Shown piece by piece: positions 7,310 through 64,000 of a DNA stretch of 64,000 nt (position 1 is its first letter; every line of letters starts with the position of its first letter). Where the stretch lies: NCBI GenBank assembly GCA_024653215.1, contig JANLFU010000001.1, forward strand, positions 269,492 to 333,491, given 5' to 3'. The notes beneath the pieces were generated by a model that saw only the letters and a program-made list of their open reading frames with translations, was not told where the DNA came from and searched no databases. A program made the position numbers and the translations under genes. This stretch comes from Candidatus Saccharicenans sp. (GTDB lineage: Bacteria; Acidobacteriota; Aminicenantia; Aminicenantales; Saccharicenantaceae).

Positions 7310-7363
7310 GCTTATCTCTCGCCCGGTAGAGTCGGGAAAGTATCCACTGGGCTTTCCGGTTTT

Positions 7364-8230: not shown

Positions 8231-8242
8231 CAGACCGCTTCA

Positions 8243-28266: not shown

Positions 28267-28276
28267 AGCTCCTCCT

Positions 28277-28819: not shown

Positions 28820-29040
28820 CTGCTTCTCCTTTTCCGTGAGATATTCTCAGAAGTGCATATAAGGTTTAATGCCCCGGTGAAATCAGGGCAGGTGGCTGTC
28901 GGCCCCAGTTTCAGACCCCGAAATCTCGGTCCAGCCGGAAAGATCGCCTTGACGGAGAAAGGAAAAAAATTCCGGCCATCTGCGGCGACTATGTTTGAGT
29001 CCATCTGGTTAAAATAAATAGATTAAAAAGATTAGGATTC

Positions 29041-47600: not shown

Positions 47601-48867
47601 CCTGACCTCCGATCTCAAAGATGGTATCGACTTCCGGAAAATAGTAACAGGCGCTGCGCATCTGGCAGGTTATCTCGTTCTTGATGAGGTCAGCCCGCAG
47701 CAACCGCCCGACCAGGTAGCGGCCGCTGCCGGTAGTACCTATGCCCAGGATTTCCAGCCCGGCCGGGAACCTGGAGAAAAGTTCCAGAAGTCCTTCCTTC
47801 AGCACCTCGAGTGGCCGGCCCCTGGTTGGCAGGTAGACTCCGCTCAGAACCTGGCTGGCTTCATCGACAATGACCAGATTGGTGCTGACCGAACCTATGT
47901 CAATTCCCAGGTATCCCCGGGCGGGGAAGTTTACCCTGTCCACGGGTTCGGAAGCCGGGCTGGCCCGGAGCTCCCCCAGCGGCTGCAGGCTGGAAAACTT
48001 GTGGTCAGCTGTCGGCCGGATTCTACCAGGAAGGTCTTCAGCGGTCAGGAAGCGTTTCTCCTCTTTCCTGGCGATGACCAGGCTGGCCGCTCCGATGGCC
48101 GGAAGATACGGTGATAAATCTGAATACAGCAGCCTTTCCGGACCGGCTTTTAAGACTTCCTGGAAGGCCCTGAGGACGCCGGCATTCTTGATGATGTTGC
48201 CGGCCAGGACCAGCGGCCAGGAAATATCCTTTCCCTTGAGCAGGGAAGAAGTCACCGATCTGACCAGGGCCAGGCAGACACCGTAAGCGATCTCTTCGGC
48301 CGGGGTGCCCTTCTGCTGGAGGTGAATCATGTCCGACTTGGCGAAGACACTGCAACGACCGGCAATGGTCGCTCCCTTCCTGGCCCGGGCGGCCAGGGAA
48401 GAAAAATCTTCTATCGACAGGCGCAATCGGTAGGCCTGCTGTTCCAGAAAGAGTCCAGTGCCGGCGGCGCATCTTTCATTGAGGGCGAAATCAACCACTT
48501 CCGGGAAGATGTCTCCGGCGGAGACTTTCCCCAGTTCCAGCCAGCGGGAACTTTCGGCCCCGATGTCAAAAACCGACCTGGCCCCGGGAAAAACCAGCCC
48601 GACCCCGGCGGCCAGGGCTGAAATCTCGTTGACCTTGAAAACCTCACCCGGGAAATCCAGACTGTTCCGGCCAGCCCCGGTGGCTGAGATTAGAAGTTTC
48701 TGGCCCGAGAGCGTAGATAGGTTTCGGCGGAGGATGGTCTCCAGGGCTGAGAAGAAATTGCCTTTGACCTCCTGGCTGTCCCTGAATATAAGCTGTCGCT
48801 GAGGGGAAAGAACCACCAGCTTTACCGATTGGACCCCGAGGTCAAGTCCCACGGCCAGGAAGCTCAT
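44677..48867 (-). CDS. 1396-aa fusion protein: two BadF/BcrA/HgdC-type (ASKHA-fold) ATPase 'activase' modules plus HgdB/BcrC-like dehydratase/reductase-type modules (CoA-substrate-specific enzyme activase family)
   Basis: N-terminal VGLDLGVQSVK and second GIDIGSVSTN ASKHA phosphate-1 motifs; ICAAGTGSFLEEQA-type cluster-bridging Cys; the remaining roughly 900 aa is Cys-containing alpha/beta. Confidence 0.7.
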   Translation of the reverse strand: MSFLAVGLDLGVQSVKLVVLSPQRQLIFRDSQEVKGNFFSALETILRRNLSTLSGQKLLISATGAGRNSLDFPGEVFKVNEISALAAGVGLVFPGARSVFDIGAESSRWLELGKVSAGDIFPEVVDFALNERCAAGTGLFLEQQAYRLRLSIEDFSSLAARARKGATIAGRCSVFAKSDMIHLQQKGTPAEEIAYGVCLALVRSVTSSLLKGKDISWPLVLAGNIIKNAGVLRAFQEVLKAGPERLLYSDLSPYLPAIGAASLVIARKEEKRFLTAEDLPGRIRPTADHKFSSLQPLGELRASPASEPVDRVNFPARGYLGIDIGSVSTNLVIVDEASQVLSGVYLPTRGRPLEVLKEGLLELFSRFPAGLEILGIGTTGSGRYLVGRLLRADLIKNEITCQMRSACYYFPEVDTIFEIGGQDSKYIQVDNGRVVDFNLNKICAAGTGSFLEEQAAQMGFRVEKDFAVLASVSRQPSDLGSRCTVFMESELLNEAARGQPLPDLVAGLAYSIARNYLEKVVERRPIGQNIVFQGGVASNQAVVRAFSILLGKEIKVHPYHRISGAIGAALEAREVVRKSGKKSLGLDDIRNQLFQSFKLTHFECRHCANRCQVVAVESGQERVYFGDICERYTSDSRLELSSADGHNPLAFRKKLLDDFKLQKPAEGPTIGLPRASVFLEFLPFWLAFFSRLGYRVKVSPETSPEIMEAGIKLQPAETCLPVKVAIGHLKFLQDDPEVDLVFLPSLVDRHQNRRESFYFCPYTENLPHMIPETVREKLLTTSVYLEPVEDSQKLSWQNLAGLLKEPEETIARAWTEAWQVQMEFDRKLKEQGQQLLKRSFQSKRPVWLISGRPYLLYDSFVNLNFWSHLEKLKLIAIPADYLELEDVELAGEILEGSAVPPWRYPRKMLEAAAWSRKHHGVYPVFLSFYGCGPDAFCLKQCKSLVESIPHLFLEFDEHRGEAGLITRLEAFDDEVSQHRAGNRPAARLKKAENPETWPVERVKKIPFVLPYFADHARAFAGALKKSGLRAEVLPPPDERSLELGEKYSSGKECHAYSFLLGDLLKLTLDEKPAEPLIFFFPGARYSCLLQQYGPAMRQLLHELDNQRVLLLTPTLDYFWQLIGFDGLKALYQGLVAVDHLTRISCQLRPYEVKRGEVNRAFQEGLKLIEEGLASDRLAEALEKIRSSFSQIKVCPEERPLIGIAGDIYTRQNSFANNRLFEQLEELGCEVWPSPFLVDEIDFSFSRGFYEKLSEGNLLETVKYAGLNLVREINLAQVRKKLEFSELKLKEPRFEELLRSTLAYLNYNNNQSLFLNVARMVDLARRGADGIINVICFNCMLGTTSAAISRRIKKDFGNLPLPTLVYGETETVSTRSRLEAFVEQVKTRYRKKKAELT

Positions 48868-50253: not shown

Positions 50254-51741
50254 TCAATTAAGTCCCTTCATGTATCGCATGTATTCTTCCACCCTATCAG
50301 GTGGCCGGGTAGAGAGGCTGACCAGAACAACCGCCAGGAAGGACAGGATGAAGGCCGGGACCCACTCGGCCACCAGGGCCTTGAGCGATGGAATAAGATA
50401 CCAGACAATTTCGGTGAGAGAGCCGACCAGGATGCCGGCGATAACTCCTTCCTTGGTGGTCTTTTCCCAGTAAAGCGACAGCAGGACGGCCGGTCCGAAG
50501 GCCGCTCCCAGTCCTCCCCAGGCAAACAGCACCAGGTAGAAGACCAGCTTGTTGGCATAGGCCGCAAACAACAGGGCCACCACGGCCACCAGCAGGGTAA
50601 AGACACGGCTGATCAATACCAGCTTCTTTTCCGGTATCTTTTTCTGGCTGGCGATAATCTTCTGGTAGGCATCCCGGACCACGGCCGAGGAGGCCACCAG
50701 CAACTGGGAAGAAGCGGTGGACATGATGGCCGCAAAGATGGCCGCTATGGTTAACCCGAAAAGAAAGGGATGAAGGTGCTGGGAACCGAGCAGGGGATAG
50801 ACGTTTTCCGGGTCTTTCCCGGGCAGGTTGGCCACGTCCTGGTACAGGGCTCTTCCGGCCAGCCCGATGAAGATGGCCCCCCAGGCCATCAGGACGTTCC
50901 AGACAGTTCCGATGAGGCCGGTCCTGTTCAATTTTTCTGGCTCTTCGATGCTCATGTATTTATTAAGGATATGGGGATTGCCGGGTGAGCCGAAACCGAT
51001 GCCGACAAAGCCCAGCCAGGCTCCGAAGCTGATGGAGAAAGTGTCGAGGTAGCCCGGGGAAATACCGCCGAGGACGGAGAACATCCGGCCCAGGCCACCG
51101 AAATGAATAATGGCGATGACCGGAAGTATCATCAGGGCAAAGATCATGAACATGGCCTGGAGGGTATCAGTCCAGCAGACGGCCATGAATCCGCCCAGGA
51201 CCGTGTAGAAAATCACGATGGCCGCGGTTATCAGGATTCCCTGGAGCGGGGTCAGGTTGAAACTGGCCGCCAGAGATTTGCCGCCGGCATTGAACTGGGC
51301 GGCCACATAAGCCGTCATGAAAATCAGGATTGGAATCAGGGCAAACAGCCGCAGCAGGTGCCGGTTGTCTTCAAACCTTGACTCCAGGTAATCGGGAATG
51401 GTGATGTCGCCCATCTTCCCGGTGAAATAGCGCAGGCGCTTCCCCGGAAAGATGAACATGAACAGCTCGACCAGGATGTATCCGACCACGGCCCAGACGG
51501 CCGAGACCCCTCGGGTGAAGGCCATCCCGGAAACGCCGATGAGCAGCCAGGCCGAACGGCCGGAAGTCACCGCGGCCAGGGCCACCACAAAGGACTTCAT
51601 TTTTCTTCCGCCCAGGAAAAATTCTCCTATGCCGCGGGAAGAAAACCTGGCGGTGATGATTCCGACCGAAACCATCATTACCACATATAAAATAAATGCG
51701 GCCAGGGCCCAGGGATTGGTATGAATGCTCAGAGTGTTCAT
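50254..51741 (-). CDS. Sodium:solute symporter (SSS) family transporter
   Basis: 13 or more TM helices with SSS-family architecture. The ORF opens at 51912, but an ATG at 51741 (MNTLSIHTNPWALAAFILY) follows GGAGGAAAGAA and starts directly with TM1. Confidence 0.8.
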   Translation of the reverse strand: MNTLSIHTNPWALAAFILYVVMMVSVGIITARFSSRGIGEFFLGGRKMKSFVVALAAVTSGRSAWLLIGVSGMAFTRGVSAVWAVVGYILVELFMFIFPGKRLRYFTGKMGDITIPDYLESRFEDNRHLLRLFALIPILIFMTAYVAAQFNAGGKSLAASFNLTPLQGILITAAIVIFYTVLGGFMAVCWTDTLQAMFMIFALMILPVIAIIHFGGLGRMFSVLGGISPGYLDTFSISFGAWLGFVGIGFGSPGNPHILNKYMSIEEPEKLNRTGLIGTVWNVLMAWGAIFIGLAGRALYQDVANLPGKDPENVYPLLGSQHLHPFLFGLTIAAIFAAIMSTASSQLLVASSAVVRDAYQKIIASQKKIPEKKLVLISRVFTLLVAVVALLFAAYANKLVFYLVLFAWGGLGAAFGPAVLLSLYWEKTTKEGVIAGILVGSLTEIVWYLIPSLKALVAEWVPAFILSFLAVVLVSLSTRPPDRVEEYMRYMKGLN

Positions 51742-51830
51742 TTCTTTCCTCCCTTCCTGAGGCCCAGAACCAGGGCCAGGACCAGGATCAGGCCGGGCAT
51801 GATGAACAGGCCGAAGTAAGTTGACAGCAT
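51738..51830 (-). CDS. Unannotated 30-aa hydrophobic micro-protein translationally coupled to the SSS transporter; candidate small accessory subunit
   Basis: Manual translation gives MLSTYFGLFIMPGLILVLALVLGLRKGGKK. Strong RBS (GGAGGTAGCC then ATG); its TGA overlaps the transporter ATG (ATGA at 51738-51741). Confidence 0.3.
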   Translation of the reverse strand: MLSTYFGLFIMPGLILVLALVLGLRKGGKK

Positions 51831-51963
51831 GGCTACCTCCTTCAGATGGCATAAAATACCACAGCCCGGCCCGGTCTTCAATTTTCTTTATTCCCTTTAT
51901 TCTCTGGAACAATTCTTCCGGTTGTGCTATGTATAAAGTCTCAAATCCCTCATGGAGGCTCCG

Positions 51964-54102
51964 ATGACCAAGGGCAAAATGGCAATCATGGTCTTATTTA
52001 CCTGTGCTATGATTATTCTGGTGGCGGCTTCGGCCTGCCGGAAGGCGGAGGAAAAAATTATCTATCCCCAGACCAGGAAAGTGGATCAAGTTGATGATTA
52101 TTTCGGCACCAGGGTGGCCGACCCCTACCGCTGGCTGGAAGACGACAATTCCGAAGAAACCAGGAAATGGGTGGAAGAACAGAACCGGGTAACCTTCGCT
52201 TACCTGGAAAAAATTCCTTACCGTGAAAAAATTCGCGAACGTCTTAGAGACATATACAACTATCCACGCATGGGACAGCCCATCCGGGCCGGTGAGTACT
52301 ATTTCTTCTACAAGAACGATGGCCTGCAGAACCAGTCTGTAATTTACATCCAGAAGGGCCTGGACGGGCAGCCTGAAGTCTTCATCGACCCCAACCAGCT
52401 TTCGCCGGATGGAACGGTCAGGATTGGCCTGGCCGGTTTTTCTACCGATTTCCGGTACGTGGCCATCAACCGCTCCGAGGCTGGCTCTGATTGGTCGGAG
52501 CTGAGGGTGATGGAGATCGCCACCCGGAAGGAGCTTCCGGACATAATCCGGTGGGTTAAGTTTTCTGGCGCGGCCTGGTACAAAGATGGCTTTTTCTACA
52601 GCGGCTATGATCAGCCCGCCCCGGGCCAGGAACTGAGTGCTCGCAACGAGTTCCAGAAGGTTTTTTATCATAAGCTGGGAGATCCGCAGGAGAAAGATAT
52701 CCTCATCTACCAGGACCCGAAAAATCCGCTGCGATACTTCAACCTGGGAGTGACCGAGGACCAGAAGTATGCCATTCTTGATATCTCGGCCGGGACCTCC
52801 GGCAATGAACTCTACTGGAAGGACCTGACCGCCAAAAAATCTGAGTTCCAGCTCCTCATCCCCGGTTTCGACCACGACAGCGAGGTCATAGATAACCTGG
52901 GCGATAAGTTCCTGGTCAGGACCAACCTAGGGGCCGCAAATTTCCGCCTGGTCCTGGTCGACCCCAGGAACCCGTCCCCGGACAGATGGCAGGAAATCCT
53001 GCCCGAAAAACCTGAAGTCCTGGTCTCGGCCAGCATGGCTGGCGGCTATCTGTTCGCTTCCTACCTCCAGGATGCCCGGACCAGGGTTTACCAGCACCGG
53101 CCCAGCGGCGAGCTCATCAAGGAAGTGGAACTGCCGACCATCGGCACGGCCTCGGGCTTTGGCGGCTGGCGGGACGACAGGGTCATTTTTTACACCTTTC
53201 AATCCTTCAATTATCCGCCAACCATCTATAAGTATGACCTGGCCAGCGGCCAGTCTGAGGTCTTTGTCCGGCAGCAGGTAAAATTCAACCCGGAAGATTT
53301 CGAGGTCAAGCAGGTCTTCTATAACAGCAAGGATGGAACCAGGGTGCCGATGTTTATCGTCCACAAAAGGGGACTGGTTCTGGATGGCAAGAATCCGACC
53401 TGGCTGACGGCTTACGGAGGCTTTAATGTCAGCCTGACCCCGGGTTTTAACCCGACGATCTTGATCATCCTGGAAAACGGTGGAGTCTATGCCCAGCCCA
53501 ACCTGAGGGGCGGAGGCGAGTACGGAGAAAAATGGCACCGGGCCGGGATGCTGGAAAACAAGCAGAATGTCTTTGACGACTTCATAGCGGCCGCCGAGTA
53601 TCTGATCAGCGAAAAGTATACCTCGCCCAAATACCTGGCTATCTCCGGCGCTTCCAACGGCGGCTTGCTGGTGGGCGCGGTCATGACCCAGAGGCCAGAG
53701 CTTTTCGGCGTGGCCTTCCCGGCGGTGGGAGTCATGGATATGCTGCGCTACCACAAGTTTACCGTGGGCTGGGGCTGGGTGGTGGAGTACGGTTCTAGCG
53801 ACAGGGAAGATCAGTTCCGTTACCTTTTTAAGTACTCGCCGCTGCACAATATCCGGGATGGGGTCTGCTATCCGGCCACCATGGTGACCACGGCCGACCA
53901 CGACGACCGGGTGGTGCCGGCCCATTCCTTCAAGTTTGCGGCCACCCTGCAGGAAAAGCAGGCCTGCAACCGTCCGGTGCTGATCCGGATTGAAACCCGC
54001 TCCGGGCACGGCTCCAGCAACGTCACCAAGGCCATAGATGAGCTGACGGACAAGTATTCTTTCATGTTCCGGGTAATGGGCCTGAAGCCGATTTACCGTT
54101 GA
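51964..54102 (+). CDS. Prolyl oligopeptidase (S9A), secreted or lipoprotein
   Basis: Beta-propeller N-terminus plus an alpha/beta-hydrolase C-terminus with catalytic Ser in GGSNGGLL. The ORF opens at 51952; an ATG at 51964 follows GGAGG with a 5-nt spacer. Signal peptide ends AASAC. Confidence 0.88.
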   Translation: MTKGKMAIMVLFTCAMIILVAASACRKAEEKIIYPQTRKVDQVDDYFGTRVADPYRWLEDDNSEETRKWVEEQNRVTFAYLEKIPYREKIRERLRDIYNYPRMGQPIRAGEYYFFYKNDGLQNQSVIYIQKGLDGQPEVFIDPNQLSPDGTVRIGLAGFSTDFRYVAINRSEAGSDWSELRVMEIATRKELPDIIRWVKFSGAAWYKDGFFYSGYDQPAPGQELSARNEFQKVFYHKLGDPQEKDILIYQDPKNPLRYFNLGVTEDQKYAILDISAGTSGNELYWKDLTAKKSEFQLLIPGFDHDSEVIDNLGDKFLVRTNLGAANFRLVLVDPRNPSPDRWQEILPEKPEVLVSASMAGGYLFASYLQDARTRVYQHRPSGELIKEVELPTIGTASGFGGWRDDRVIFYTFQSFNYPPTIYKYDLASGQSEVFVRQQVKFNPEDFEVKQVFYNSKDGTRVPMFIVHKRGLVLDGKNPTWLTAYGGFNVSLTPGFNPTILIILENGGVYAQPNLRGGGEYGEKWHRAGMLENKQNVFDDFIAAAEYLISEKYTSPKYLAISGASNGGLLVGAVMTQRPELFGVAFPAVGVMDMLRYHKFTVGWGWVVEYGSSDREDQFRYLFKYSPLHNIRDGVCYPATMVTTADHDDRVVPAHSFKFAATLQEKQACNRPVLIRIETRSGHGSSNVTKAIDELTDKYSFMFRVMGLKPIYR

Positions 54103-54369
54103 TGAGTTAAGACCAGGCTGGCGGCCTGATCCAGCCGGATTGAATGATTCGGGCGGCGGGCATAGCCTGGTCGGTACCGGGGTGAACTGGTTTCTGACTG
54201 ATCTGTGTCAGGCTTGAAATCGGCTCGGTCCAGACATCCGGGTTGCCCCCTGGTTAAGCCCGAGAACCAGTCTGAAACCCGGTTAGGACCGTAAGCTCTT
54301 CATTTACACCCCGGTCATCAGCAGCCAGGGTTCCTTTTCTCCTGTTACGGGGATTATCCTGTCTTCCGC

Positions 54370-55980
54370 TCAGTCTTTGATCTCATGCTGTTCCAGCAGG
54401 GCTCTCCATTTCTCCATCAGGTCCCGGTTGATGTCCAGAGGGGGAGTGGCCTCCGGTGGCAGGAAGGATTTATATGAATGGGTCTTCATATGTTCTTCAA
54501 ATTCGGCCTTAATCTTATTTAATGTCTCTGGACCCGTCAGCAGGTCGAGAGCGGTCAGGGCCATGGCCTTAGCCCCGGCGTTCAATCCTTTCCAGGCAAT
54601 TGAGCCGTAGACCGAAGCCACGGTTGACCAGTGATGGCCGATGGCCCCGGGGACGTTGGACGGGAAACGAACCGTGGCCGTTGGGGCCACCAGGGTCACC
54701 TCGCCCACGTCGGTGGAGCCGCCGCCGATGAATGAATCTCTCGGCTCACGAAGCGGGTTGACCTCCCTTTTCAAGCCTTTTTCTTCCGACTTAAGTTCCT
54801 GCTGCAGGGCCTGGGCAAACTCTTCTTCTTCCTTGTCCCAGACCGGCATCCCGGCCAGCTCGATGTTCTTCTGAAGGAGCTCGGCCAGGGTCCTGTTTCC
54901 GTGGAACTGGTGGGTGGCGCTCAGCACCCTGACTTCGGCCAGTTCGGTCCCGGTGGCCAGGGCCGCGGCTCTGGCGCAGTTCGCCACCCGTTCAAACATC
55001 GCTTCCAGCTCGTCGTCGGTATTCCGGACGTAATACCAGACCGAAGCTTTGTCGGGGACCACGTTGGGAGCCTGTCCGCCTTCAAGGATGATGTAATGGA
55101 GTCGATGGGCGGGGTTCAGGTGTTCCCGGAGGTAATTGGTGGCTACGTTCATCAGTTCCACCGCGTCCAGGGCGCTGCGTCCGGCCCATGGCGCCCCGGC
55201 GCTATGGGCCGTTTTTCCCCTGAAGGTAAAGATGGCGGAAATCACCGCGTTACCCGAGACGCCGTAAGCCGTGCCGAAATCGCTGGAGCTGTGGTTGTCA
55301 ATGACGGCATCCACGTCTCTGAACAGACCGGCCCGGACCATGTATGGCCGGCTGGCCAGAATTTCTTCGGCCGGCGAGCCAAAGACCTTGATCGTTCCCT
55401 TGATTCCAAATTTTTCCATGGCCTTCCTGGTGGCTATGGCCGCAGCCACCGCCGCCGTGCCCATGGTATTGTGGCCGCAGCCGTGACCCGGGGCGCCTTC
55501 TATGACCGGGTCCTTCCTGGGCACCCGTCCTTTCTGGGAAAGCATGGGCAGGGCGTCAAATTCGCCCAGGAATCCGATGACCGGCTTTCCCTCCCCGTAG
55601 CTGGCCACGAAGCAGGTCGGCATGCCGGCCAGCCCCCGCTCCACCTTGAACCCGGCCTGCTCCAGGGTATCGGCCAGAAGTTTTGAAGACTTGAACTCCT
55701 GCAGGCCCAGCTCGGCATAGGACCAGATGCGGTCGGAGATGCGGCCAAAAAATTCCAGTTGCTCTTTCTCCCCCAGCCAGTCCAGAATGAATCTCTTTTC
55801 CTTTCCGATTTTTACTGTTGCTTTTTTCTTTGCGGCCTGGGTGTTTTCCGGTCCGGCGGCAAGCCCTGGCCGGTAGCAAAGCAGGGCGGCCAGCAGCAGC
55901 AGGGGCAGCAGTCTCCAGAATCTGGTTTTGGGACTTTGGCCGGGACTGACGATTTCTTCAGGCAGCCCGGAGTGATTCAT
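54370..55980 (-). CDS. Secreted M20-family metallopeptidase/amidohydrolase (AbgB-like M20D)
   Basis: GHGCGHN metal-binding motif; signal peptide after a roughly 20-aa n-region. Confidence 0.78.
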   Translation of the reverse strand: MNHSGLPEEIVSPGQSPKTRFWRLLPLLLLAALLCYRPGLAAGPENTQAAKKKATVKIGKEKRFILDWLGEKEQLEFFGRISDRIWSYAELGLQEFKSSKLLADTLEQAGFKVERGLAGMPTCFVASYGEGKPVIGFLGEFDALPMLSQKGRVPRKDPVIEGAPGHGCGHNTMGTAAVAAAIATRKAMEKFGIKGTIKVFGSPAEEILASRPYMVRAGLFRDVDAVIDNHSSSDFGTAYGVSGNAVISAIFTFRGKTAHSAGAPWAGRSALDAVELMNVATNYLREHLNPAHRLHYIILEGGQAPNVVPDKASVWYYVRNTDDELEAMFERVANCARAAALATGTELAEVRVLSATHQFHGNRTLAELLQKNIELAGMPVWDKEEEEFAQALQQELKSEEKGLKREVNPLREPRDSFIGGGSTDVGEVTLVAPTATVRFPSNVPGAIGHHWSTVASVYGSIAWKGLNAGAKAMALTALDLLTGPETLNKIKAEFEEHMKTHSYKSFLPPEATPPLDINRDLMEKWRALLEQHEIKD

Positions 55981-55981
55981 G

Positions 55982-57331
55982 TCATTTCTCCTTTTCCCTT
56001 TTTCTGAATTTTTCCAGCAACTCCGTATAGCGGTTGCTCAGGTCCACCTCCCGGCCTTCAATGAATACCTTTTCAATCCGGGTGCCGAGTTCCAGCAGGT
56101 CGCCGTCGGCCAGGACGATGTTGGCCTGTTTCCCGGCCTCCAGGCTGCCCATGAGCTTATCCACTCCGAATATTTCAGCCGGGTAGATGGTTACTGCTTT
56201 CAGGGCTTCCAGCCGGTCAAGTCCGAAGGCCGCCGCCTTGGCCGCATGGTAGGGAAGGTCCTTGGCCGCGCTGGAGCTGGAGGAGGAGAAGGCGATTTTC
56301 ACCCCGGCCTGGTTGAGCAGCACCGGGTTCATAAACAGTGAGTCATAGCCGTCTTCCCACACCGGCGGCTGGTCATAGAGCGAACCGATGAGGCAGGGAA
56401 TGCCAGCTTTCTTGATTTCCCCGGCCACCTTGTAACCCTGGTGGACCCCATAGAATATGGCCTTAATCTTTTCTTCCTGAACGAAGCGTATGGTCTGCAG
56501 GATGTCCTTGTCGGCCTGGACTGAAAAGATAACCGGCAGTTCTCCCCTGACCACCGGCAGCAGGCAGTGGCTGGTTTCGTCGAAATCGGGCCTGGGTAGC
56601 AGAAGGTTTTTCGCAGCCTGTTCTCTTCTTATCTCGTACATTCTGGCCCGGTGAAACAATTCTTTAAGCTCGGCCAGGGCCCGGTCGGTGGAGACGGCTG
56701 CCTGCTGGGTGCCCATGCCCATGAATCCTCGCCTTCCACCCCTTATGCCCGGAAGCTCAACCACCAGGGCCAGGCTTTCCTTGATTACCATTTCCCGGTT
56801 GGTCCAGCCGTCGAGCTTGACCAGGGTGCTCTGCCCGGCTATCAAGCCGCCGGAGGGGGCCACCACCGCGGCCACGATTCCGTTGGCCCGGGCGATTGGT
56901 ATGTGCATGGAGTCGTACTTCAGGGCTTCGATGGCCTTGACCTGGGGGTTGATGCGCCCGGTTTCCCGGTTATCAACCGTGGCCGAAACGCCGCTTATCT
57001 CAACCAGCCCCAGGGAAGAATAACCGTCGATCATTCCCGGGTAAGCGGTCAGGCCCCGGGCCTCTATGATTCTGGCTCCGGCTGGAATTTCCAGGTTGGC
57101 TCCAAGGGCCTTTATTTTCCCGTTCTCAACCAGGATGGTTCCCGAGGGAATTTCCTGGCCGACGACCGGGACAATACGGACGTTGACGATGGCCTGCAAA
57201 GCTGACCCAGGACCGCTATTTTCTGTGTCTGTCCGGGCTTCTGCCGGCGACAACAGCCAGGTGGTTAAAAGTAAAATTAACAGGAATGACAGCGGCAGAT
57301 ATTTCTTAAAGCAAATTATTCTGCTGAACAT
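55982..57331 (-). CDS. Secreted amidohydrolase-superfamily protein (prolidase-like subfamily), lacking the HxH motif
   Basis: Signal peptide. The beta-strand-1 motif reads PGMIDGYSSLGL at about 57010-57045 (expected PGxIDxHxH). The C-terminal GSLEAGKQANIVL block is conserved among the three paralogues. Confidence 0.75.
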   Translation of the reverse strand: MFSRIICFKKYLPLSFLLILLLTTWLLSPAEARTDTENSGPGSALQAIVNVRIVPVVGQEIPSGTILVENGKIKALGANLEIPAGARIIEARGLTAYPGMIDGYSSLGLVEISGVSATVDNRETGRINPQVKAIEALKYDSMHIPIARANGIVAAVVAPSGGLIAGQSTLVKLDGWTNREMVIKESLALVVELPGIRGGRRGFMGMGTQQAAVSTDRALAELKELFHRARMYEIRREQAAKNLLLPRPDFDETSHCLLPVVRGELPVIFSVQADKDILQTIRFVQEEKIKAIFYGVHQGYKVAGEIKKAGIPCLIGSLYDQPPVWEDGYDSLFMNPVLLNQAGVKIAFSSSSSSAAKDLPYHAAKAAAFGLDRLEALKAVTIYPAEIFGVDKLMGSLEAGKQANIVLADGDLLELGTRIEKVFIEGREVDLSNRYTELLEKFRKREKEK

Positions 57332-58638
57332 CAGTTTCCTCCTTTCCTGGCCGCCTCTTCTCTTTCCTTGATTACCTGCTGCCGGTCGAAGTAAACCTCG
57401 CCTTCAATTATGGTCAGGTCGCAGCGGGTATAGGCGCTCATCGGGTGTTCGTTGAACAGGGCCAGGTCGGCCTGTTTCCCCACCTCGATGCTTCCCACCA
57501 GGCGATCAACCCCCAGCTGGCGGGCGGCGTTGATGGTTACCATCTTCAGGGCTTCATCCGGGGTCAGGCCGTACTTGACCGCCTTGCCGGCTTCATTGAA
57601 CAGGCGGCGCACCCTTTCCGAGCTGTCGGAGTTGATGGAGACCAGGACCCCTCTTTGAGTGCAATAGGAAGCATTGTAGGCAATTCCCTCGGCCGCCTCC
57701 ATCTTGTAGGCCCAGCTATCTATGAACACCGAGATTCCAACCCCGGCGGCCAGCAGCTCATCGGTGATCTTGTAGGCTTCCCAGGCATGTTCGAAAGCTC
57801 CTATCTTGAACCCGAATTCTTTAGCCAGGTTAAGAAATTCCACCATCTCGGTAGCCACGTAGGCATGGCAGCGGGCATAAAGCTTGCCGCGCAGCAGGTC
57901 AGCCAGGGTTTCCAGCCTGAGGTCCTTTTTGGGAGGCAGGAGGTTTTCGGGCGGGTTTTTGGAATTCCTTAATTTTTCATACCTGTCCCACTCGGCCAGG
58001 TAATCTCTGGCCCGCAGCAGTTCCCTCCTGATGATGGCGTTGGCTCCCATCCTGGTGGCCGGGTAACGCTGCGGACGGCCGGGGAGAAGAGTGCGGTTGG
58101 ACTGCTTGACGTTTTCACCGAGGGCGAACTTCAGGGTGGGGTAGGCTTCCCTGACCACCAGCTTTTCCGAGGGCTGACCCCATTTCATCTTCAGCACGAC
58201 GTTGACCCCGCCGATGACGTTGGCGCTGCCGTGCATGGTGTGAACCATGGTCACTCCGCCGCTCAGGGCAGTGAAAATGGCCGGGTCGTCGGGATTGATG
58301 ACCTCGGCCATGTTGACTTCGGGGGTGATGGCCTCGGTACCCTCGTTGGTGCCGGACAGGGCCAGGTGGGTATGGGTGTCGATGATGCCTGGAATCAGGT
58401 ATTTGCCCTGGGCCTCGATGATTCTGGTGCCCGGGGGTGCGGTCAGGTTCCGACCAATCTGTTTAATGATTCCATTAGTTACCAGGACATCTCCGCCGGT
58501 GATGGGTGGGCCGGTGACCGGAAGAATGGTGGCGTTCTTGATCAGAAGGTTGCCGGCGGCCAGCAGCCAGCTGGCCGAGCCGGCCAGCATTATAACCAGA
58601 AGCAGTATGAAAATTGGGAGACGAGTCAGATTTTTCAT
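57331..58638 (-). CDS. Secreted amidohydrolase-superfamily protein (prolidase-like), canonical
   Basis: PGIIDTHTHLAL HxH motif; C-terminal GSIEVGKQADLAL; ATGA overlaps with both neighbours. Confidence 0.8.
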   Translation of the reverse strand: MKNLTRLPIFILLLVIMLAGSASWLLAAGNLLIKNATILPVTGPPITGGDVLVTNGIIKQIGRNLTAPPGTRIIEAQGKYLIPGIIDTHTHLALSGTNEGTEAITPEVNMAEVINPDDPAIFTALSGGVTMVHTMHGSANVIGGVNVVLKMKWGQPSEKLVVREAYPTLKFALGENVKQSNRTLLPGRPQRYPATRMGANAIIRRELLRARDYLAEWDRYEKLRNSKNPPENLLPPKKDLRLETLADLLRGKLYARCHAYVATEMVEFLNLAKEFGFKIGAFEHAWEAYKITDELLAAGVGISVFIDSWAYKMEAAEGIAYNASYCTQRGVLVSINSDSSERVRRLFNEAGKAVKYGLTPDEALKMVTINAARQLGVDRLVGSIEVGKQADLALFNEHPMSAYTRCDLTIIEGEVYFDRQQVIKEREEAARKGGN

Positions 58639-59975
58639 TGGCCCTTCTCCTCGTAATTAAAGAGAATTCCGTCGACCAGCACCCTGACCACTTTGGTCTT
58701 TTCTCCGAACAGGTCACCCCTGGTCAGGATGAGGTTGGCGATCTTTCCGGGTTCCAGGGTGCCCAGTTGCCGGTCGAGTCCCAGGATCCGGGCCGGTTCC
58801 ACGGTCAGGGCCCGGAGGGCGGCCTGGGGCTCAAGCCCGGCCTTGATGGCGGCCTGCAGATTCCTGGCGAAGCTTGACTCGGACAGTCCAAAGCTGGTCA
58901 GGGCAAAGGTGATATTTTCTTTTAGCAGGGTGGCGGCGTTGGCCGGATAGATTTCAGCCTCGGCCTTTTTTCGGACGGCTTCGCCCTGCTGATTGTAAAT
59001 GCTGGCATTGGGAGGCCTGAAGTCGAGAGCCACCAGCAGGGGAACCCGGGCCTTCTTCAGATGTTCAGCGGCTCTCCAGGCCTCGTTGCAGCCGGTGAGA
59101 ACCGCGTTCAGCTTGAATTCTTCTATCAGGCGCAGCGCCCTCTTGATATCCTCCTGGTTGTTGCACTGGAAGACGACCGGTCTTTTATCAACCACAAAGG
59201 GTACCAGGGCTTCCAGGAAGGGGTCGTATTCGGGTCTTTTTAAGAAGCGCGGCGAGGACTGGTATTTTTTCTGGTGGAGGGCATAGTGGCTGGCATCATA
59301 GAATTTCTGCCGGATGAAGGCTACCGTTCCCATCAGGCTCGAGGGGTAGACTCCGCCCCTTTCGGTGGTGAAGTTGACATGCAGAGCCCAGGGCTGTTTC
59401 AGGACCATGCTGTTTGGCTGGTCACCATTGAGGTTAAGAACAACGCTCTGTCCCTGGAAAATTCCACGGTTCGGAGCCACCACCACCGTGGTTACTCCGG
59501 CCCGGTGCCAGGCTTCAACCGTCTGCTTCTTGGGCTTTATTTCCTTGAAGACCTGGAGCTCGGGAAACTGCTGGGGAGTGGCTGCCTGGGTATAGGCACC
59601 CAGGAAGTCTTCAGCCGTCTGGGGTTGTTCCTGTTCCCTGGTTTCCAGGAAAAGGTTGGTGTGGGCTGAAATCAGCCCGGGGTAGACGGTCAGCCCCCCG
59701 GCCTCAATCACTTCCGCGTCTGCCGGGACTGTAATCTTATCAGCGGGGCCCAGGGCTTCAATCAAACCGTCCCGGACGATGATGGTGCCTTTTTCAATGG
59801 GCGGGCTGGAAACCGGGACCAGACGACAATTTACCAGGGCGTAAACCGGTTTGACTTCGGTTGCTGCGGCCGGGAGGGCGAGAACCATGGCCACTCCCAG
59901 CATAAGCAGAATCAGAAGCGGCAACCATTTCTTCTGTGGCCAGGGCTGATGTTGCTTCCGCAGTTTTTGTTTCAT
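58635..59975 (-). CDS. Secreted amidohydrolase-superfamily protein (prolidase-like), HxH reduced to AHTN
   Basis: The ORF opens at 60014; an ATG at 59975 (MKQKLRKQHQPW...LLILLMLGVAMVLALPAAA) follows GGAAGGAGG. The motif reads PGLISAHTNLF at about 59651-59686. Confidence 0.75.
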   Translation of the reverse strand: MKQKLRKQHQPWPQKKWLPLLILLMLGVAMVLALPAAATEVKPVYALVNCRLVPVSSPPIEKGTIIVRDGLIEALGPADKITVPADAEVIEAGGLTVYPGLISAHTNLFLETREQEQPQTAEDFLGAYTQAATPQQFPELQVFKEIKPKKQTVEAWHRAGVTTVVVAPNRGIFQGQSVVLNLNGDQPNSMVLKQPWALHVNFTTERGGVYPSSLMGTVAFIRQKFYDASHYALHQKKYQSSPRFLKRPEYDPFLEALVPFVVDKRPVVFQCNNQEDIKRALRLIEEFKLNAVLTGCNEAWRAAEHLKKARVPLLVALDFRPPNASIYNQQGEAVRKKAEAEIYPANAATLLKENITFALTSFGLSESSFARNLQAAIKAGLEPQAALRALTVEPARILGLDRQLGTLEPGKIANLILTRGDLFGEKTKVVRVLVDGILFNYEEKGQ

Positions 59976-60504
59976 ATGCCTCCTTCCTTGTCGGGCTTCA
60001 GGCCGTACCCGCAACCACGTTGGTGGCCGAGGTGGAGATTGAATTTGATCGAGGCTATATAACTGTGGCCAGAGCCATAAAAATCAAGGCGAATTAACGA
60101 TGGTAATAGCAGCGGGGCAAAGCCGGAAGCCGCGGTTTTAATCTTTTTATTCAAAATATCCGCCAGGCCAGTCGGAAAAATTCTTTAGAAAAAATATCTT
60201 ATATCTGGAAAATTTGATGTCAACAAGAATATTTTTTTCAGGTTAGATTATTTTATCTGGGCAAGATAGCCTGAATTGGCGGGGCTGGTGCAGATGGACA
60301 GATTTGGTCGGGGCATAGGATCCACAGCCTCCATCTGAGCATTTCTTAAAGAAGCGGTCTTATGGCCTTAAAAGTCTGGCGGGGTTTTTAAAATAAAAAA
60401 GATAACGATGTGAAAATAAAGACAGGCCCGATTTATCTGTTACTTATTGCGGTTTCTGTTCAGTGATTCTGGCTGTCGAGGTAAGCCCGGAAGTTGTCCT
60501 TTCC

Positions 60505-60587: not shown

Positions 60588-61043
60588 ATGAAAAAAATTG
60601 CCATCCTGTTGGTTATGGTCCTGGTTCTGATGATGGCAGTTCCGGGCCAGGCCCAGCAGAAAAAGTTCGGCCTGGGTATCATTCTGGGCGAGCCAACGGG
60701 CCTCATCGCCAAGTACTGGACCAGCCGGACCACGGCCTTTGATATAGCCGGTTCCTGGTCTTTTGCCGGTGAAGATTCGTTCCACCTGCATGCCGATTAC
60801 CTGTTTCACAGCTTCAATATCTTCAAGGTGGATAAGGGCCAGCTGCCCCTTTATTACGGAATCGGGGCCAGGCTGAGCCTTCAGGATCAGACCAGGTTCG
60901 GCATCCGTATCCCCGTAGGCCTGAGCTACATGTTTGACAAAACCCCCATTGATATCTTTGTTGAAATAGGTCCGGTGATGGATGTCGTCCCGGCCACCGA
61001 GCTGCACATTCTCGGTTTCATCGGCTTCCGCTATTATTTCTAA
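60588..61043 (+). CDS. Small outer-membrane beta-barrel protein (OmpW/OmpA-like 8-strand class)
   Basis: The ORF opens at 60552; an ATG at 60588 follows AAGGAG. Signal peptide MKKIAILLVMVLVLMMAVPGQAQ; amphipathic strands; C-terminal FRYYF aromatic terminus. Confidence 0.65.
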   Translation: MKKIAILLVMVLVLMMAVPGQAQQKKFGLGIILGEPTGLIAKYWTSRTTAFDIAGSWSFAGEDSFHLHADYLFHSFNIFKVDKGQLPLYYGIGARLSLQDQTRFGIRIPVGLSYMFDKTPIDIFVEIGPVMDVVPATELHILGFIGFRYYF

Positions 61044-61499
61044 TCATGTCAATTCGGGGTAGGCTGGGGTGCCCGGAATTATCCGGGCCTAGCTCCCGGT
61101 GCTTTTGATGCCTGGTCGTTAACCCTGAGACTGACCAGCATTTCTGATTTAAGGCTGCGGTTTAAGTCTGGTTTTAATCGCTGTGGGGCCAGGAGGTCAG
61201 AGTCAGTCTGGACAGCCAGGAGCGGAATCAAGGTCGCCGAGATGATGAATATAATGGTATCCATCTTTGATGGCCTTAAAAGGATAACGATAGACCGGCT
61301 ATTACCCACACCCTTTTTCTTGGTCCGGCCTTCCACCACGAAAGAAGCCTCCGGGTTTCCTTTTTACTCGCCCGGGAGGCCGGCAGCCTGGCCTTGAGAT
61401 GTGGTAACCGGCGATCCGCCCCCTGGGAAAACAGTGGAAATTGGCTACAAAATGCTTAAAATCTTATAAGATATTATGGCCGTCTAGAGGAGACGCGAG

Positions 61500-63551
61500 G
61501 TGCTGACCCTGGCCGAAAAAATTATTTTGACCATTCTTATACTGGCAACTTTTATCCTTTTCTTTTTCCCGGTTGTAAAACGGGTGCTGATCCTGGCCCG
61601 TCTCCAGGCTGCAGCCCGGTTTGATTCCCTGCTCAGGAGATTCTTTTACACCGTCTCCCGGGTTTTCCTGCAGCTCTGCACCCTGAAAAATGAAAGGCCG
61701 TGGAGCGGTGCGGCCCATCTCCTGATTTTTTACGGGGCCCTGGCCTTTGACACCATGACCATTAACCATGTCATCGAGGGTTACGTTGATGGCTTTTACC
61801 TTTTCGGACAGTCCTGGCTGGGCCGGCTTTTTTCAGCCTCGGTTGACCTTTTTTCCATAACCGTCCTGGCCGGCGTGACCTTTTTTGCCATTAAGCGGTT
61901 TGTGATCAGGCCACGGGCCTATGATACCGGTGCCCGGGATTCGGCCCTGATCTATCTTTTTATTTTCCTGGCCGTCAGCACCTTCCTGCTGTTCAACCTG
62001 TTTTCCGTGGCTCTCCATCCGGGAAGCCAGACCTGGGCTTTCCTCAGCCGCTTTCTGGCCGAAAAATTCCTGCCGGCCTCAGTGTCCACTATCACCCTGG
62101 AGCATAACCTGAAACTGGCCTACTGGCTCCATGCCCTGGCCGTCTTTTCCTTTATTTCCTATGTGCCGCATTCCAAGTATTTTCACCTGTTTGCCGGACC
62201 GGTCAACCTGTTTTTCCGGAGAAACCGGCCCACCGGTCAGATGCCTCCCCTGAACCTGGAAACAGCCGAAACTTTCGGGGCAGAAAAGGCCACCGATTTC
62301 AGCTGGAAGGATGGCCTGGACGCCCTGGCCTGTGTCGAGTGCGGCCGTTGCCAGGATGTCTGTCCGGCCTTTCAGAGCGGAAAGGCTCTTTCGCCAAAGA
62401 TGGTCATCCTGAACCTGGAAAAGCATCTGCTGGCGGAATACAAGAACATCAAAAAAGGCGGGGAAAACCTGCCGGCCCTGGTGCCGGGCGTCTTCTCCGA
62501 GGAGGAGATCTGGGCCTGCACCACCTGCGGGGCCTGCCTTCACGTCTGTCCCTTTGACATAGAACATCCGGATAAGTTGTTGAGCCTGCGCCAGAACCTG
62601 GTGCTGGCCCGGGGACGTTTTCCGGGAGAGTTGCGCAAATTTTTCCACAACCTGGAAACCTATGGCAATCCCTGGGGTTTGCCCGTCTCCAGGAGGGCTG
62701 AACTGCTCCGGGAACTCGGGGTGAAAACTCTTGATGAGTACCCCGAGGCCGAGTACTTGCTGTGGCTTGGCTGTTTTGGCACTTTTGATGACCGGGGCCG
62801 CCAAATTGCCGGGGCCATGGTCAGGATAATGAAGTCGGCCGGCCTCAGGTTTGCAGTCCTGGGAGAGGAGGAGCGCTGCTGCGGCGATTCAGCCCGTCGC
62901 CTGGGAAACGAGTATCTCTTTCAGACGCTGGCTTCGGCCAACATCAAGAGCCTGGCCCGTTTCAGGCTGAAGGGCCTGGTTACCTTCTGCCCCCATGGCT
63001 ATAACGTTTTTAAGAACGATTATCCGGCCCTGCTGGAAGTTCTCAGCGATTTGAGCCCCGAGGCAAAGGAAAGAATCCGCTCCCTGCGGGTCCTTTCTCA
63101 TCTGGAGTTACTGTCCAGCCTGATTGAACGGAAAAGGCTTCCGCTTCAAAGACCGGATGAATCAGGAACCGGGGGCTCTTTTACCATTCATGATTCCTGC
63201 TATTACGGCCGCCACAACAGACTGCTGGCTGAGCCCAGGAAAATTCTCGGTGCCGTCCTGGGCGAAAACCTGCGGGAACTGAAGAATTCAGGGGAACACA
63301 GCTTTTGTTGCGGGGCCGGGGGCGGGTTGATGTGGACAGAAGAGAAGGCTGGGAGACGGGTCAACCACCTGCGGAGCGATGAGATAATCAGGAATGGCAG
63401 CCGCCTGGTGGCCACTTCCTGTCCTTTCTGCCTGACCATGCTCCAGGACGGCCTTCGCGACCGTGGCGCCGACGAATTCCGGGTGCTGGACGTGGCCGAG
63501 ATTCTGGCCGCGGCCCTGCAGGATTCTGGCCCGGACACTACCAGGTCTTGA
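61500..63551 (+). CDS. Membrane-bound Hdr-like protein: N-terminal NarI/HdrE/DsrM-like multi-TM domain fused to an HdrD/DsrK-like domain (2x[4Fe-4S] plus two CCG domains)
   Basis: Six TM helices with conserved His residues; CVECGRCQDVCP and CTTCGACLHVCP ferredoxin motifs; two Cys-rich CCG repeats (CFGTF...ERCCGD and CYYG...FCCGAGGG). GTG start per the ORF track. Confidence 0.7.
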   Translation: MLTLAEKIILTILILATFILFFFPVVKRVLILARLQAAARFDSLLRRFFYTVSRVFLQLCTLKNERPWSGAAHLLIFYGALAFDTMTINHVIEGYVDGFYLFGQSWLGRLFSASVDLFSITVLAGVTFFAIKRFVIRPRAYDTGARDSALIYLFIFLAVSTFLLFNLFSVALHPGSQTWAFLSRFLAEKFLPASVSTITLEHNLKLAYWLHALAVFSFISYVPHSKYFHLFAGPVNLFFRRNRPTGQMPPLNLETAETFGAEKATDFSWKDGLDALACVECGRCQDVCPAFQSGKALSPKMVILNLEKHLLAEYKNIKKGGENLPALVPGVFSEEEIWACTTCGACLHVCPFDIEHPDKLLSLRQNLVLARGRFPGELRKFFHNLETYGNPWGLPVSRRAELLRELGVKTLDEYPEAEYLLWLGCFGTFDDRGRQIAGAMVRIMKSAGLRFAVLGEEERCCGDSARRLGNEYLFQTLASANIKSLARFRLKGLVTFCPHGYNVFKNDYPALLEVLSDLSPEAKERIRSLRVLSHLELLSSLIERKRLPLQRPDESGTGGSFTIHDSCYYGRHNRLLAEPRKILGAVLGENLRELKNSGEHSFCCGAGGGLMWTEEKAGRRVNHLRSDEIIRNGSRLVATSCPFCLTMLQDGLRDRGADEFRVLDVAEILAAALQDSGPDTTRS

Positions 63552-63581
63552 GCTTCGCGGTCGTTTAAGGGCACCAGCTCC

Positions 63582-63610
63582 TTGCCAGATGGACGGAAAT
63601 CGGCTATAAA
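63582..63610 (+). promoter_or_regulatory. Near-consensus sigma70 promoter for tRNA-Arg(CCG)
   Basis: TTGCCA at 63582-63587, a 17-bp spacer, TATAAA at 63605-63610; the tRNA starts 9 nt downstream. Confidence 0.45.
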
Positions 63611-63619
63611 TAAAGCAGT

Positions 63620-63693
63620 GCGCCTGTAGCTCAGTTGGATAGAGCGACGGACTCCGGATCCGTAGGTCGCGCGTTCGAATCGCGCCAGGCGTA
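63620..63693 (+). tRNA. tRNA-Arg (anticodon CCG)
   Basis: Cloverleaf: acceptor GCGCCTG/CAGGCGT (G1-U72 wobble), D-arm GCTCAGTTGGATAGAGC, anticodon stem ACGGA/TCCGT with loop CTCCGGA, T-arm GCGCG-TTCGAAT-CGCGC. Coordinates may be off by 1 nt. Confidence 0.75.
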
Positions 63694-63710
63694 CTCTTGC
63701 TTTAAGAGTC

Positions 63711-64000
63711 ATGCTGGTCAGACGAGGGGCGGTTATCAAACATAAACTGGTTTCCTGGCCAAGACTTCAGGCTTTTATCAAGGCCCGTGGTTATGCTTCT
63801 TGCTTTCTGTTAGTTCTTTTTATCCTGGCGGCCAGTGCCCCGGCTTTGATTGATGGGGCTGGTGCAGGCGATCTTGATGGAGTCCCGCCTTTTTATTCTT
63901 CTTCTGTTTTGTCCACTGCAAACCGGGCTGACCAGCCCGGGCCGAGACCAGAAAGCCGGTTCCTCCGGGTATTGAGGGTGATAGACGGCGACAGCCTGGA
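63711..64000 (+). CDS. Membrane-anchored thermonuclease (SNase-like) family protein, 5' fragment; gene continues past the window end
   Basis: Manual translation from ATG 63711 gives MLVRRGAVIKHKLVSWPRLQAFIKARGYASCFLLVLFILAASAPA...RVLRVIDGDSL. It has an N-terminal TM anchor and the RVIDGD(T/S) motif characteristic of staphylococcal-nuclease homologues. Confidence 0.5.
   Translation, partial: MLVRRGAVIKHKLVSWPRLQAFIKARGYASCFLLVLFILAASAPALIDGAGAGDLDGVPPFYSSSVLSTANRADQPGPRPESRFLRVLRVIDGDSL

Follow-up and report, generated by a model that had tools for sequence, protein, structure and literature searches.

A probable ETF:menaquinone oxidoreductase of the EMO/EtfD family encoded in a Candidatus Saccharicenans contig

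The electron transfer flavoprotein (ETF):(methyl)menaquinone oxidoreductase (EMO), which belongs to the same family as EtfD, has been purified from Syntrophus aciditrophicus and its structure solved (bioRxiv 10.64898/2026.08.18.745454; see also PMC8805022). Proteins of this family combine three parts in one polypeptide: a NarI/HdrE-like cytochrome b of five helices, an HdrC-like part that holds two cubane clusters, and an HdrB-like part with two non-cubane clusters, known as the CCG domain and now named NCB (bioRxiv 10.64898/2026.08.18.745454; PMC13083937). Electron transfer from ETF through EMO to (methyl)menaquinone has been shown for S. aciditrophicus, and EtfD is needed for the growth of mycobacteria on fatty acids (bioRxiv 10.64898/2026.08.18.745454; PMC13083937; PMC8805022). 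The Mycobacterium smegmatis enzyme (MsEtfD) contains a single haem and is uncoupled, whereas the S. aciditrophicus enzyme (SaEMO) contains three haems, two of them stacked as a distal pair, and the proton-motive force (pmf) drives it (PMC13083937; bioRxiv 10.64898/2026.08.18.745454). In this study, a stretch of 64,000 nucleotides from Candidatus Saccharicenans sp. (contig JANLFU010000001.1, positions 269,492 to 333,491; hereafter, the window) was analyzed with respect to the gene located at 61500..63551 on the forward strand. An earlier sequence-only reading had described its product as an orphan HdrE/HdrD-like (DsrM/DsrK-like) membrane oxidoreductase. Rather than an orphan disulfide reductase, it was found to be a typical representative of a widely distributed family of solved structure, and the gene probably encodes an ETF:menaquinone oxidoreductase.

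The gene starts with GTG and encodes 683 aa, as indicated by the open reading frame (ORF) call and a full-length match to the structure 9OJN; the same length was observed for its 95%-identical orthologue (P0001), which served for comparison because a look-up of the exact protein sequence gave no record. Three regions were delineated on the forward strand: a membrane cytochrome b domain (aa 1-240, 61500..62219) with five transmembrane (TM) helices, based on the predicted model and ligand mapping; a two-cubane [4Fe-4S] region with eight cysteines (62283..62669), based on Pfam Fer4_8/9/10 matches and mapping to clusters D4 and D3 of MsEtfD; and an NCB domain with two CCG stretches (aa ~418-675, 62751..63524), based on Pfam and ligand mapping. 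The Pfam matches to the two CCG stretches had an E-value of 1.3e-25, and the best of those to 4Fe-4S dicluster families had an E-value of 1.3e-11. The ORF and the architecture put forward by the sequence-only reading were therefore present exactly, as judged from the ORF call, Pfam, and the model, and its view of the protein as an HdrE-like cytochrome b fused to an HdrD-like (HdrC plus HdrB) module agrees with the published descriptions of the family (bioRxiv 10.64898/2026.08.18.745454; PMC13083937).

The family assignment was obtained from both sequence and fold over the full length of the protein. The top phmmer match in the PDB was chain A of 9OJN, deposited as an "Iron-sulfur-binding reductase" (E 7e-104, 352 bits), which is M. 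smegmatis EtfD (PMC13083937). In the alignment, which has 38% identity over 624 residues, 98.5 bits come from the TM domain and 253 bits from the soluble part; the next PDB matches were HdrC and HdrB with 20-27 bits. From an alignment of 49 sequences, AlphaFold2 produced a model with a pLDDT of 93.8 and a pTM of 0.91. Its TM helices comprise residues ~4-33, 67-93, 106-136, 145-172, and 197-224. TM I and TM IV are each followed by short connecting helices, and this topology agrees with that published for EMO. In the Foldseek search against the PDB, 9OJN ranked first over the whole chain (TM-score 0.88/0.82, rmsd 3.1 Å, E 3e-39), while LutA, HdrB, and NarI each matched single domains. The single-polypeptide architecture of EMO/EtfD was thus recovered by Pfam, by the full-length alignment, and by the TM-score of 0.88, and the protein belongs to the EMO/EtfD family. 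It shares with MsEtfD and M. tuberculosis EtfD (MSMEG_0690 and Rv0338c, respectively; 9OJN) the five TM helices, the two cubane clusters, and the two CCG/NCB clusters on a single polypeptide, but MsEtfD has 1042 aa with a disordered C-terminal extension of ~265 aa, which is missing from the 683-aa window protein. SaEMO (SYN_02638) has 706 aa, the same three-domain layout, and the three conserved TM histidines.

Membership in the NarI family as such was rejected. The match to NarI/Nitrate_red_gam (PF02665) was weak, with 19.8 bits under a gathering score of 22.9, and the NarI chains matched the membrane domain at the fold level (TMt ~0.5). NarI has four axial histidines, two in helix II and two in helix V; three are found here (H73, H211, and H229). 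Judging from helix spacing, the fourth would fall at position 83, which is Phe. The earlier description of a NarI-type dihaem cytochrome b was therefore only partly borne out: the fold and three of the four histidines agree, but a count of two haems may not hold, given Phe83 and relatives with one or three haems.

The cofactor ligands listed for MsEtfD in PMC13083937 were carried onto the window protein through a HMMER alignment. In the cubane region, C278, C281, C284, and C350 correspond to the D4 ligands C301, C304, C307, and C422 of MsEtfD, and C288, C340, C343, and C346 to the D3 ligands C311, C412, C415, and C418. These eight cysteines were invariant in all 151 diverse representatives compared (representatives of 50%-identity clusters) and, together with the nine NCB cysteines, are shared with MsEtfD as expected of a family member. 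The proximal non-cubane site comprises C567, C603, C604, C641, C644, and H499, equivalent to C637, C672, C673, C709, C712, and H583 of MsEtfD. Hence, the haem, arginine, cubane, and proximal non-cubane ligands of MsEtfD are all conserved, including its H583. At the distal non-cubane site, C425, C460, and C497 correspond to C503, C538, and C581; Cys461 stands opposite T539, and Gly500 opposite C584, the sole cofactor ligand of MsEtfD that is not conserved. Because the window protein has Cys461 and Gly500 where EtfD has Thr539 and Cys584, a linear [3Fe-4S] cluster is not expected. All the mapped ligand residues were invariant across the Aminicenantes clade of 121 sequences, and His occupied position 499 in 151 of the 151 representatives.

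The distal ligand set of the window protein (CCG...CPHG) is the one found in SaEMO, where the H534-G535 pattern with the CCG cysteines kept gives a [4Fe-5S] cluster (bioRxiv 10.64898/2026.08.18.745454). H499-G500 of the window protein follow the C-P of the first CCG domain in the same way as H534-G535 do, and the CCG cysteines are retained. The same CCG/CPHG signature occurs in two Syntrophaceae homologues, which corroborates the mapping. The distal site varies across the family: among the 151 representatives, the most frequent combinations were CTG/CPHC (43), CCG/CPHC (41), CCG/CPHG (19), and CNG/CPHC (16), and position 500 was Gly in 22. As a separate observation, homologues in four Bacillaceae loci (L045, L069, L085, and L087, from Brevibacillus, Peribacillus, Neobacillus, and Metabacillus) have the combination NSG/DPHA, with the hallmark His kept and three of the four distal-cluster cysteine positions examined replaced. 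Judging from these residues, they probably lack the distal non-cubane cluster.

The same ligands bear on the sequence-only reading, according to which the CCG domain of a fused HdrDE- or DsrMK-type enzyme would use quinol to reduce some disulfide or thiol carrier, either DsrC-like or CoM/CoB-like. The layout does resemble a fusion of HdrE and HdrD, and weak partial matches to DsrK, HmcF, TmcB, HdrC, and HdrB were obtained. The methanogen HdrDE and HdrBC have homologous modules, namely, an HdrE-like b-type cytochrome, an HdrC-like dicubane part, and an HdrB-like CCG part. However, these are separate subunits with catalytic bridging cysteines and an open coenzyme M/coenzyme B (CoM/CoB) site, their similarity to the window protein reaches 16-27 bits only, and the NCB domain scored 22.7 bits (E 6e-4) with HdrB versus 175 bits with EtfD. 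DsrMK, HmcEF, and TmcBC likewise combine a NarI-like cytochrome b with a Fer4/CCG protein, but as separate genes of dsr, hmc, and tmc operons, whereas the window gene is a fusion for which no dsr, hmc, or tmc context was found in the window. Against the NCBIfam models, the protein scored 48.5 bits for DsrK (cut-off 400), 55.9 for HmcF (cut-off 750), and 42.6 for TmcB (cut-off 735).

In Hdr, Cys81 is the bridging cysteine that is displaced by the substrate, and in both solved structures an EMO-specific histidine (H583 of MsEtfD, H534 of SaEMO) is a ligand that completes the proximal cluster, where it also occupies the CoM site of Hdr (bioRxiv 10.64898/2026.08.18.745454; PMC13083937). In the alignment with HdrB (5ODC), C78-N-G-C81 lies opposite C497-P-H499-G500, so that Gly80 of HdrB stands at H499 and Cys81 at G500. 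In place of the catalytic bridging cysteine of Hdr, the window protein has Gly500, and its H499 is the residue by which the substrate site is blocked in both solved EMOs. Since H499 is present and Cys81 is replaced by Gly500, the CCG cysteine pattern does not look catalytic, and the two clusters of this domain resemble a wire for electrons rather than a thiol/disulfide site. In the 64-kb window, no Dsr (DsrC), Qmo, or Hdr genes were detected by Pfam analysis of 40 large ORFs and six-frame phmmer, and the whole-chain fold is that of EtfD. A catalytic thiol-disulfide reductase of the Hdr/Dsr type is essentially excluded because the ligand pattern is contrary and the scores are far too low, and the reading as a whole is highly improbable. 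The disulfide or thiol substrate that had been called undefined was thus probably the wrong question.

A lactate- or glycerol-phosphate-type enzyme had been named as the alternative to the HdrD/DsrK assignment. The NCBIfam scores of TfrB (126) and LdhH (111) exceeded those of HmcF (56), DsrK (48.5), and GlpC (47), all far below their cut-offs, and on the NCB domain Foldseek placed LutA (E 5e-7; TMt 0.80, TMq 0.30) ahead of HdrB (E 5e-4); by this comparison, the HdrD/DsrK assignment fails. The alternative does not hold either, since EtfD wins widely (352 bits, TM-score 0.88). A GlpC/GlcF/LutA/LdhH-type role was not supported: GlpC reached 47 of 278 bits, GlcF 20 of 333, and LdhH 111 of 800, LutA covers the NCB domain only (TMq 0.30), and no partner genes were found in the window. 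Subunits of this type lack a cytochrome b domain and have flavoprotein dehydrogenase subunits next to them (GlpAB, GlcDE, or LutBC).

In the membrane domain, the axial histidines of haem b, H73 and H229, are equivalent to H78 and H241 of MsEtfD, and the distal-site H211 to H223. The propionate-binding arginines R133, R146, and R283 correspond to R137, R150, and R306, with R283 located in the Fe-S domain. In SaEMO, H87 and H251 bind the proximal haem and H233 is distal (bioRxiv 10.64898/2026.08.18.745454), and all three conserved TM histidines of EMO/EtfD are present in the window protein. They were invariant in the 121 sequences of the Aminicenantes clade, and His was found at positions 73, 211, and 229 in 147, 139, and 151 of the 151 diverse representatives, respectively. 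Characterized relatives with the same three histidines bind one haem (MsEtfD) or three (SaEMO) (PMC13083937; bioRxiv 10.64898/2026.08.18.745454), so that these histidines do not fix the haem number of the window protein. Phe218 is conserved and corresponds to F230 of MsEtfD. Ala80 (codon 61737-61739) is invariant in the Aminicenantes clade, whereas 136 of the 151 family representatives have Phe at this position; the equivalent F85 of MsEtfD stacks on the modelled menaquinone, and F94 of SaEMO occludes the pocket (PMC13083937; bioRxiv 10.64898/2026.08.18.745454). E6, H90, and H224 are conserved in the clade and rare in the rest of the family.

These residues, with the distal ligand set, raise the question of which solved enzyme the window protein resembles more closely. 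As a pmf-coupled variant of SaEMO type, it would have a twin-haem and quinone site on the distal (periplasmic) side and would serve a reverse redox loop (from ETF through menaquinone to H2 or formate) or, in reverse, enoyl-CoA respiration, as opposed to the uncoupled single-haem mycobacterial type. The comparison with SaEMO was drawn from published residues and spacing rather than from an alignment, and the equivalences to its E22, H109, E187, and A101 are spacing-based; neither the 270 proteins retrieved, among them P0180 with 706 aa, nor eleven Syntrophaceae, deltaproteobacterial, Thermodesulfobacteriota, and Geobacteraceae loci showed residues matching those published at the published numbering. 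The CCG...CPHG set is common to SaEMO and its Syntrophaceae homologues. The distal His211 is conserved, and the 18-residue spacing from the distal to the proximal His of TM V is identical in SaEMO and the window protein. T87 follows the proximal His by 14 residues, which is the spacing of A101 in SaEMO (Ser in the HdrE model), beside haem bD2, and the clade-conserved E6 and H90 lie where TM I and TM II end on the periplasmic side, in the manner of E22 and H109 of SaEMO. The lineage is of an anaerobe type, and hypF is present in the window. The distal-cluster signature, Thr87, E6, and H90 thus lean toward the SaEMO type. However, the equivalences of E6, H90, and T87 rest on spacing only, and MsEtfD retains the distal His yet has no distal haem (bioRxiv 10.64898/2026.08.18.745454), so that conservation of this His is no proof of a distal haem. 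SaEMO and the window protein also differ in Phe94 versus Ala80 and in gene context, since the relatives of SaEMO have etfBA adjacent and the window gene does not. A pmf-coupled variant of this kind is considered possible but somewhat unlikely.

The sequence-only reading had regarded the fusion as unusual, since cytochrome b and Fe-S subunits of this kind are normally encoded by separate genes. An exhaustive HMMER scan returned 1,554 representatives of 50%-identity clusters at E<=1e-30, the best 150 of which were almost all full-length, and over 7,000 proteins were retrieved by a word-indexed search. When species-representative genomes were scanned, at least 600 matches were obtained in many phyla; the taxa among the matches listed include Leptospira, Syntrophaceae, Geobacteraceae, Bacillaceae, Actinomycetes, Chloroflexota, Bacteroidota, Thermoplasmata, and many others. 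The fusion of cytochrome b and Fe-S modules is therefore the defining architecture of a very large EMO/EtfD family and no peculiarity of the window gene.

Gene association was counted within 8 kb of the homologue in 80 cross-phylum loci (L010-L089) and 14 Aminicenantes-clade loci (L001-L014); the ETF, thiolase, and 3-hydroxyacyl-CoA dehydrogenase seeds were confirmed by Pfam, and the acyl-CoA dehydrogenase seeds are putative. Among the cross-phylum loci, 24 had etfAB and 35 had any ETF or beta-oxidation marker. The genes etfB-etfA lie directly 5' of the homologue in deltaproteobacterial, Syntrophaceae, and Geobacteraceae loci, and Bacillaceae loci (including L045, L069, L085, and L087) have thiolase, 3-hydroxyacyl-CoA dehydrogenase, and two putative acyl-CoA dehydrogenase genes 3' of it. 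The family-level link to ETF and beta-oxidation is clear, and the unlinked state is common: adjacent etfAB was missing from 56 of the 80 loci, and any ETF or beta-oxidation marker from 45. The etfD gene of M. tuberculosis is not known to be adjacent to etfBA either. Within the 64-kb window, the upstream outer membrane protein (OMP) gene, the downstream tRNA, and the lack of DsrC-like, Qmo, or Hdr partners were borne out as described earlier, but standing alone in this way does not make the gene an orphan.

By homology to the two solved enzymes, the EMO/EtfD family most likely supplies the quinone pool of the membrane with electrons that are released when fatty acids and amino acids are broken down. 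In such a scheme, acyl-CoA dehydrogenases would load ETF during the oxidation of fatty acids or amino-acid-derived acyl-CoAs, and reduced ETF would dock via EtfB on the cytoplasmic NCB domain. Single electrons would then hop through the distal (C425/C460/C461/C497) and proximal (C567/C603/C604/C641/C644 with H499) non-cubane clusters and the two cubane [4Fe-4S] clusters to haem b (H73/H229), with a possible further hop to the distal haem site at H211. The final acceptor would be (methyl)menaquinone in the membrane. The reaction would be reversible in principle, running from menaquinol through ETF to enoyl-CoA. For this organism, we infer the ETF donor, the menaquinone acceptor, the haem number, and the direction by homology only. 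A quinone pool in the clade is suggested by nuoA/B/C-type genes close to an Aminicenantales orthologue; the scan of window ORFs identified no genes of the men or futalosine pathways.

Several observations weigh against an ETF:menaquinone oxidoreductase. Neither ETF nor acyl-CoA dehydrogenase or thiolase genes were detected in the 64-kb window by the same Pfam and six-frame phmmer searches, and etfAB or beta-oxidation markers were found in none of the 14 Aminicenantes-clade loci (within 8-10 kb). The quinone site may differ because Ala80 replaces the family-wide Phe and is accompanied by the rare clade residues E6, H90, and H224. In addition, members of the EMO alignment such as Pseudomonas aeruginosa PA5399, which we take to be linked to other flavoprotein dehydrogenases, suggest that ETF is maybe not the sole donor context. 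PA5399 appears in the published EMO alignment (bioRxiv 10.64898/2026.08.18.745454).

On this basis, the window protein could be an EMO-family protein whose flavoprotein donor is other than ETF, e.g., a lactate-, glycolate-, glycerol-3-phosphate-, or amine-oxidizing dehydrogenase, and which serves as a generic Fe-S/cytochrome b quinone-reducing anchor. The absence of a linked ETF from all the Aminicenantes loci, the LutA-like fold of the NCB domain (TMt 0.80), the partial matches to LdhH, TfrB, and GlpC, and the report that NCB domains serve diverse dehydrogenases (bioRxiv 10.64898/2026.08.18.745454) are in its favor. However, no alternative dehydrogenase is adjacent either, the matches to LutA, LdhH, TfrB, and GlpC are domain-level and far under cut-off, whereas that to EtfD is full-length, and unlinked etfAB is common, as shown by the 56 of 80 loci above. 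Another donor is therefore judged quite unlikely, and an ETF:menaquinone oxidoreductase is retained as the probable function. A broader proposal starts from the Aminicenantes EMO as a whole, which combines the SaEMO-type [4Fe-5S] ligand set, a remodelled membrane domain (Ala80, E6, H90, and H224), no etfAB link, and a constant position 3' of an OMP-like gene. This enzyme might be a pmf-coupled twin-haem form for a syntroph-like reverse redox loop or for enoyl-CoA respiration on amino-acid-derived acyl-CoAs in uncultured "fermenters", or it might use a non-ETF donor; we regard the proposal as unlikely.

The protein is of a known, structurally characterized kind; what is new is an uncharacterized member that comes from a phylum without cultures and shows minor features specific to its clade. 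The main value of the analysis is a correction of annotation, since public records such as "Fe-S oxidoreductase" or "heterodisulfide reductase-related" invite the reading as an orphan Hdr, and "EMO/EtfD-type ETF:menaquinone oxidoreductase" is a better label. Saccharicenans-like Aminicenantes are common in anaerobic digesters and the subsurface and are usually described as fermenters. If ETF and acyl-CoA dehydrogenases are encoded in the genome, these bacteria would pass electrons from acyl-CoA oxidation to the membrane quinone pool. The SaEMO-type cluster signature hints at energy coupling as in syntrophs, which, if true, would bear on their ecological role. A literature search for ETF or beta-oxidation in Aminicenantes or Saccharicenans found nothing useful.

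The remainder of the window points to peptide and amino-acid catabolism. A utilization cluster at 50254-60014, syntenic with the Saccharicenans contigs L001 and L002, comprises a sodium:solute symporter, an S9 prolyl oligopeptidase, an M20 peptidase, and three tandem amidohydrolase genes; an M14 peptidase is also encoded in the window. Urocanase was found at 42255-43937 and the subunits of a 2-oxoacid:ferredoxin oxidoreductase at 25923-28021. A 1396-aa protein (44677-48867, reverse strand) has two BcrAD_BadFG ATPase domains and DUF2229 and resembles a fused CoA-enzyme activator of the 2-hydroxyacyl-CoA dehydratase or benzoyl-CoA reductase type. The HypF carbamoyltransferase of [NiFe]-hydrogenase maturation is located at 18011-20323 on the reverse strand; therefore, a [NiFe] hydrogenase is implied elsewhere in the genome. 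Five ORFs of 272-435 aa had no Pfam match at E<=1e-5: 22958-24220 and 7248-8243 on the reverse strand, and 37221-38528, 13590-14897, and 28199-29017 on the forward strand.

The closest relatives of the window protein (95-60% identity) belong to Candidatus Saccharicenans and other Aminicenantes, in which the window's local synteny is preserved. No partner genes were found within 10 kb on either side of the gene in the orthologous contigs. On the contigs of these relatives, the region downstream, beyond the end of the window, encodes an SNase-like protein, an OB-fold protein, MsrAB, DUF2177, and FakA/DegV. Both synteny types of the Aminicenantes have an OMP-like gene directly upstream of the EMO homologue. 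For the Saccharicenans type, this is a DUF3996 gene, which is the same neighbor in orthologous loci. In the window, it is located at 60588-61043 on the forward strand and encodes a small secreted beta-rich protein of ~151 aa that is barely above the DUF3996 threshold (23.1 bits versus a gathering score of 22). In the Aminicenantales type (L003:7023-7982 and L008:7163-7987, with homologues in L011, L012, and L013), it is an unrelated secreted beta-rich protein of 274-319 aa, whose gene stops 13-18 bp before the EMO start. The latter gene, which is unannotated and co-transcribed with the EMO homologue, was rejected as a partner: its product is secreted, beta-rich, and OMP-like, is not matched by Pfam, and has no homologue in the window. 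Membership of the DUF3996/OMP-like neighbor in the EMO system is not shown; the upstream OMP-like proteins are possible channels for hydrophobic substrates.

A terminator-like hairpin was detected by sequence scan at 61083-61099, 3' of the DUF3996/OMP-like gene. It is followed by a putative promoter of the EMO gene itself at 61435-61462 (+), with the sigma-70-like hexamers TGGAAA and TAAAAT; the call is a consensus match alone (9 of 12 positions) and no proof of function. A Shine-Dalgarno motif (GAGGAG) was read from the sequence at 61487-61492 (+), 7 nt 5' of the GTG. Downstream, a tRNA-Arg gene with the anticodon CCG was identified at 63620-63694 (+) by ARAGORN and Rfam (tRNA, 69.5 bits), and the Rfam scan returned no other RNA. 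The reverse-strand ORFs at 62079-62804, 61464-61769, and 63203-63739 within the gene were taken for shadow ORFs, on the assumption that they reflect a GC-rich coding region. Among the loci compared, a Geobacteraceae one (L072) has, beside the EMO homologue, an EtfA of 438 aa (L072:1850-3166; Fer4 + ETF + ETF_alpha) that begins with a 2 x [4Fe-4S] ferredoxin domain. In this locus, a third ETF-like ORF lies 5' of the ETF pair.

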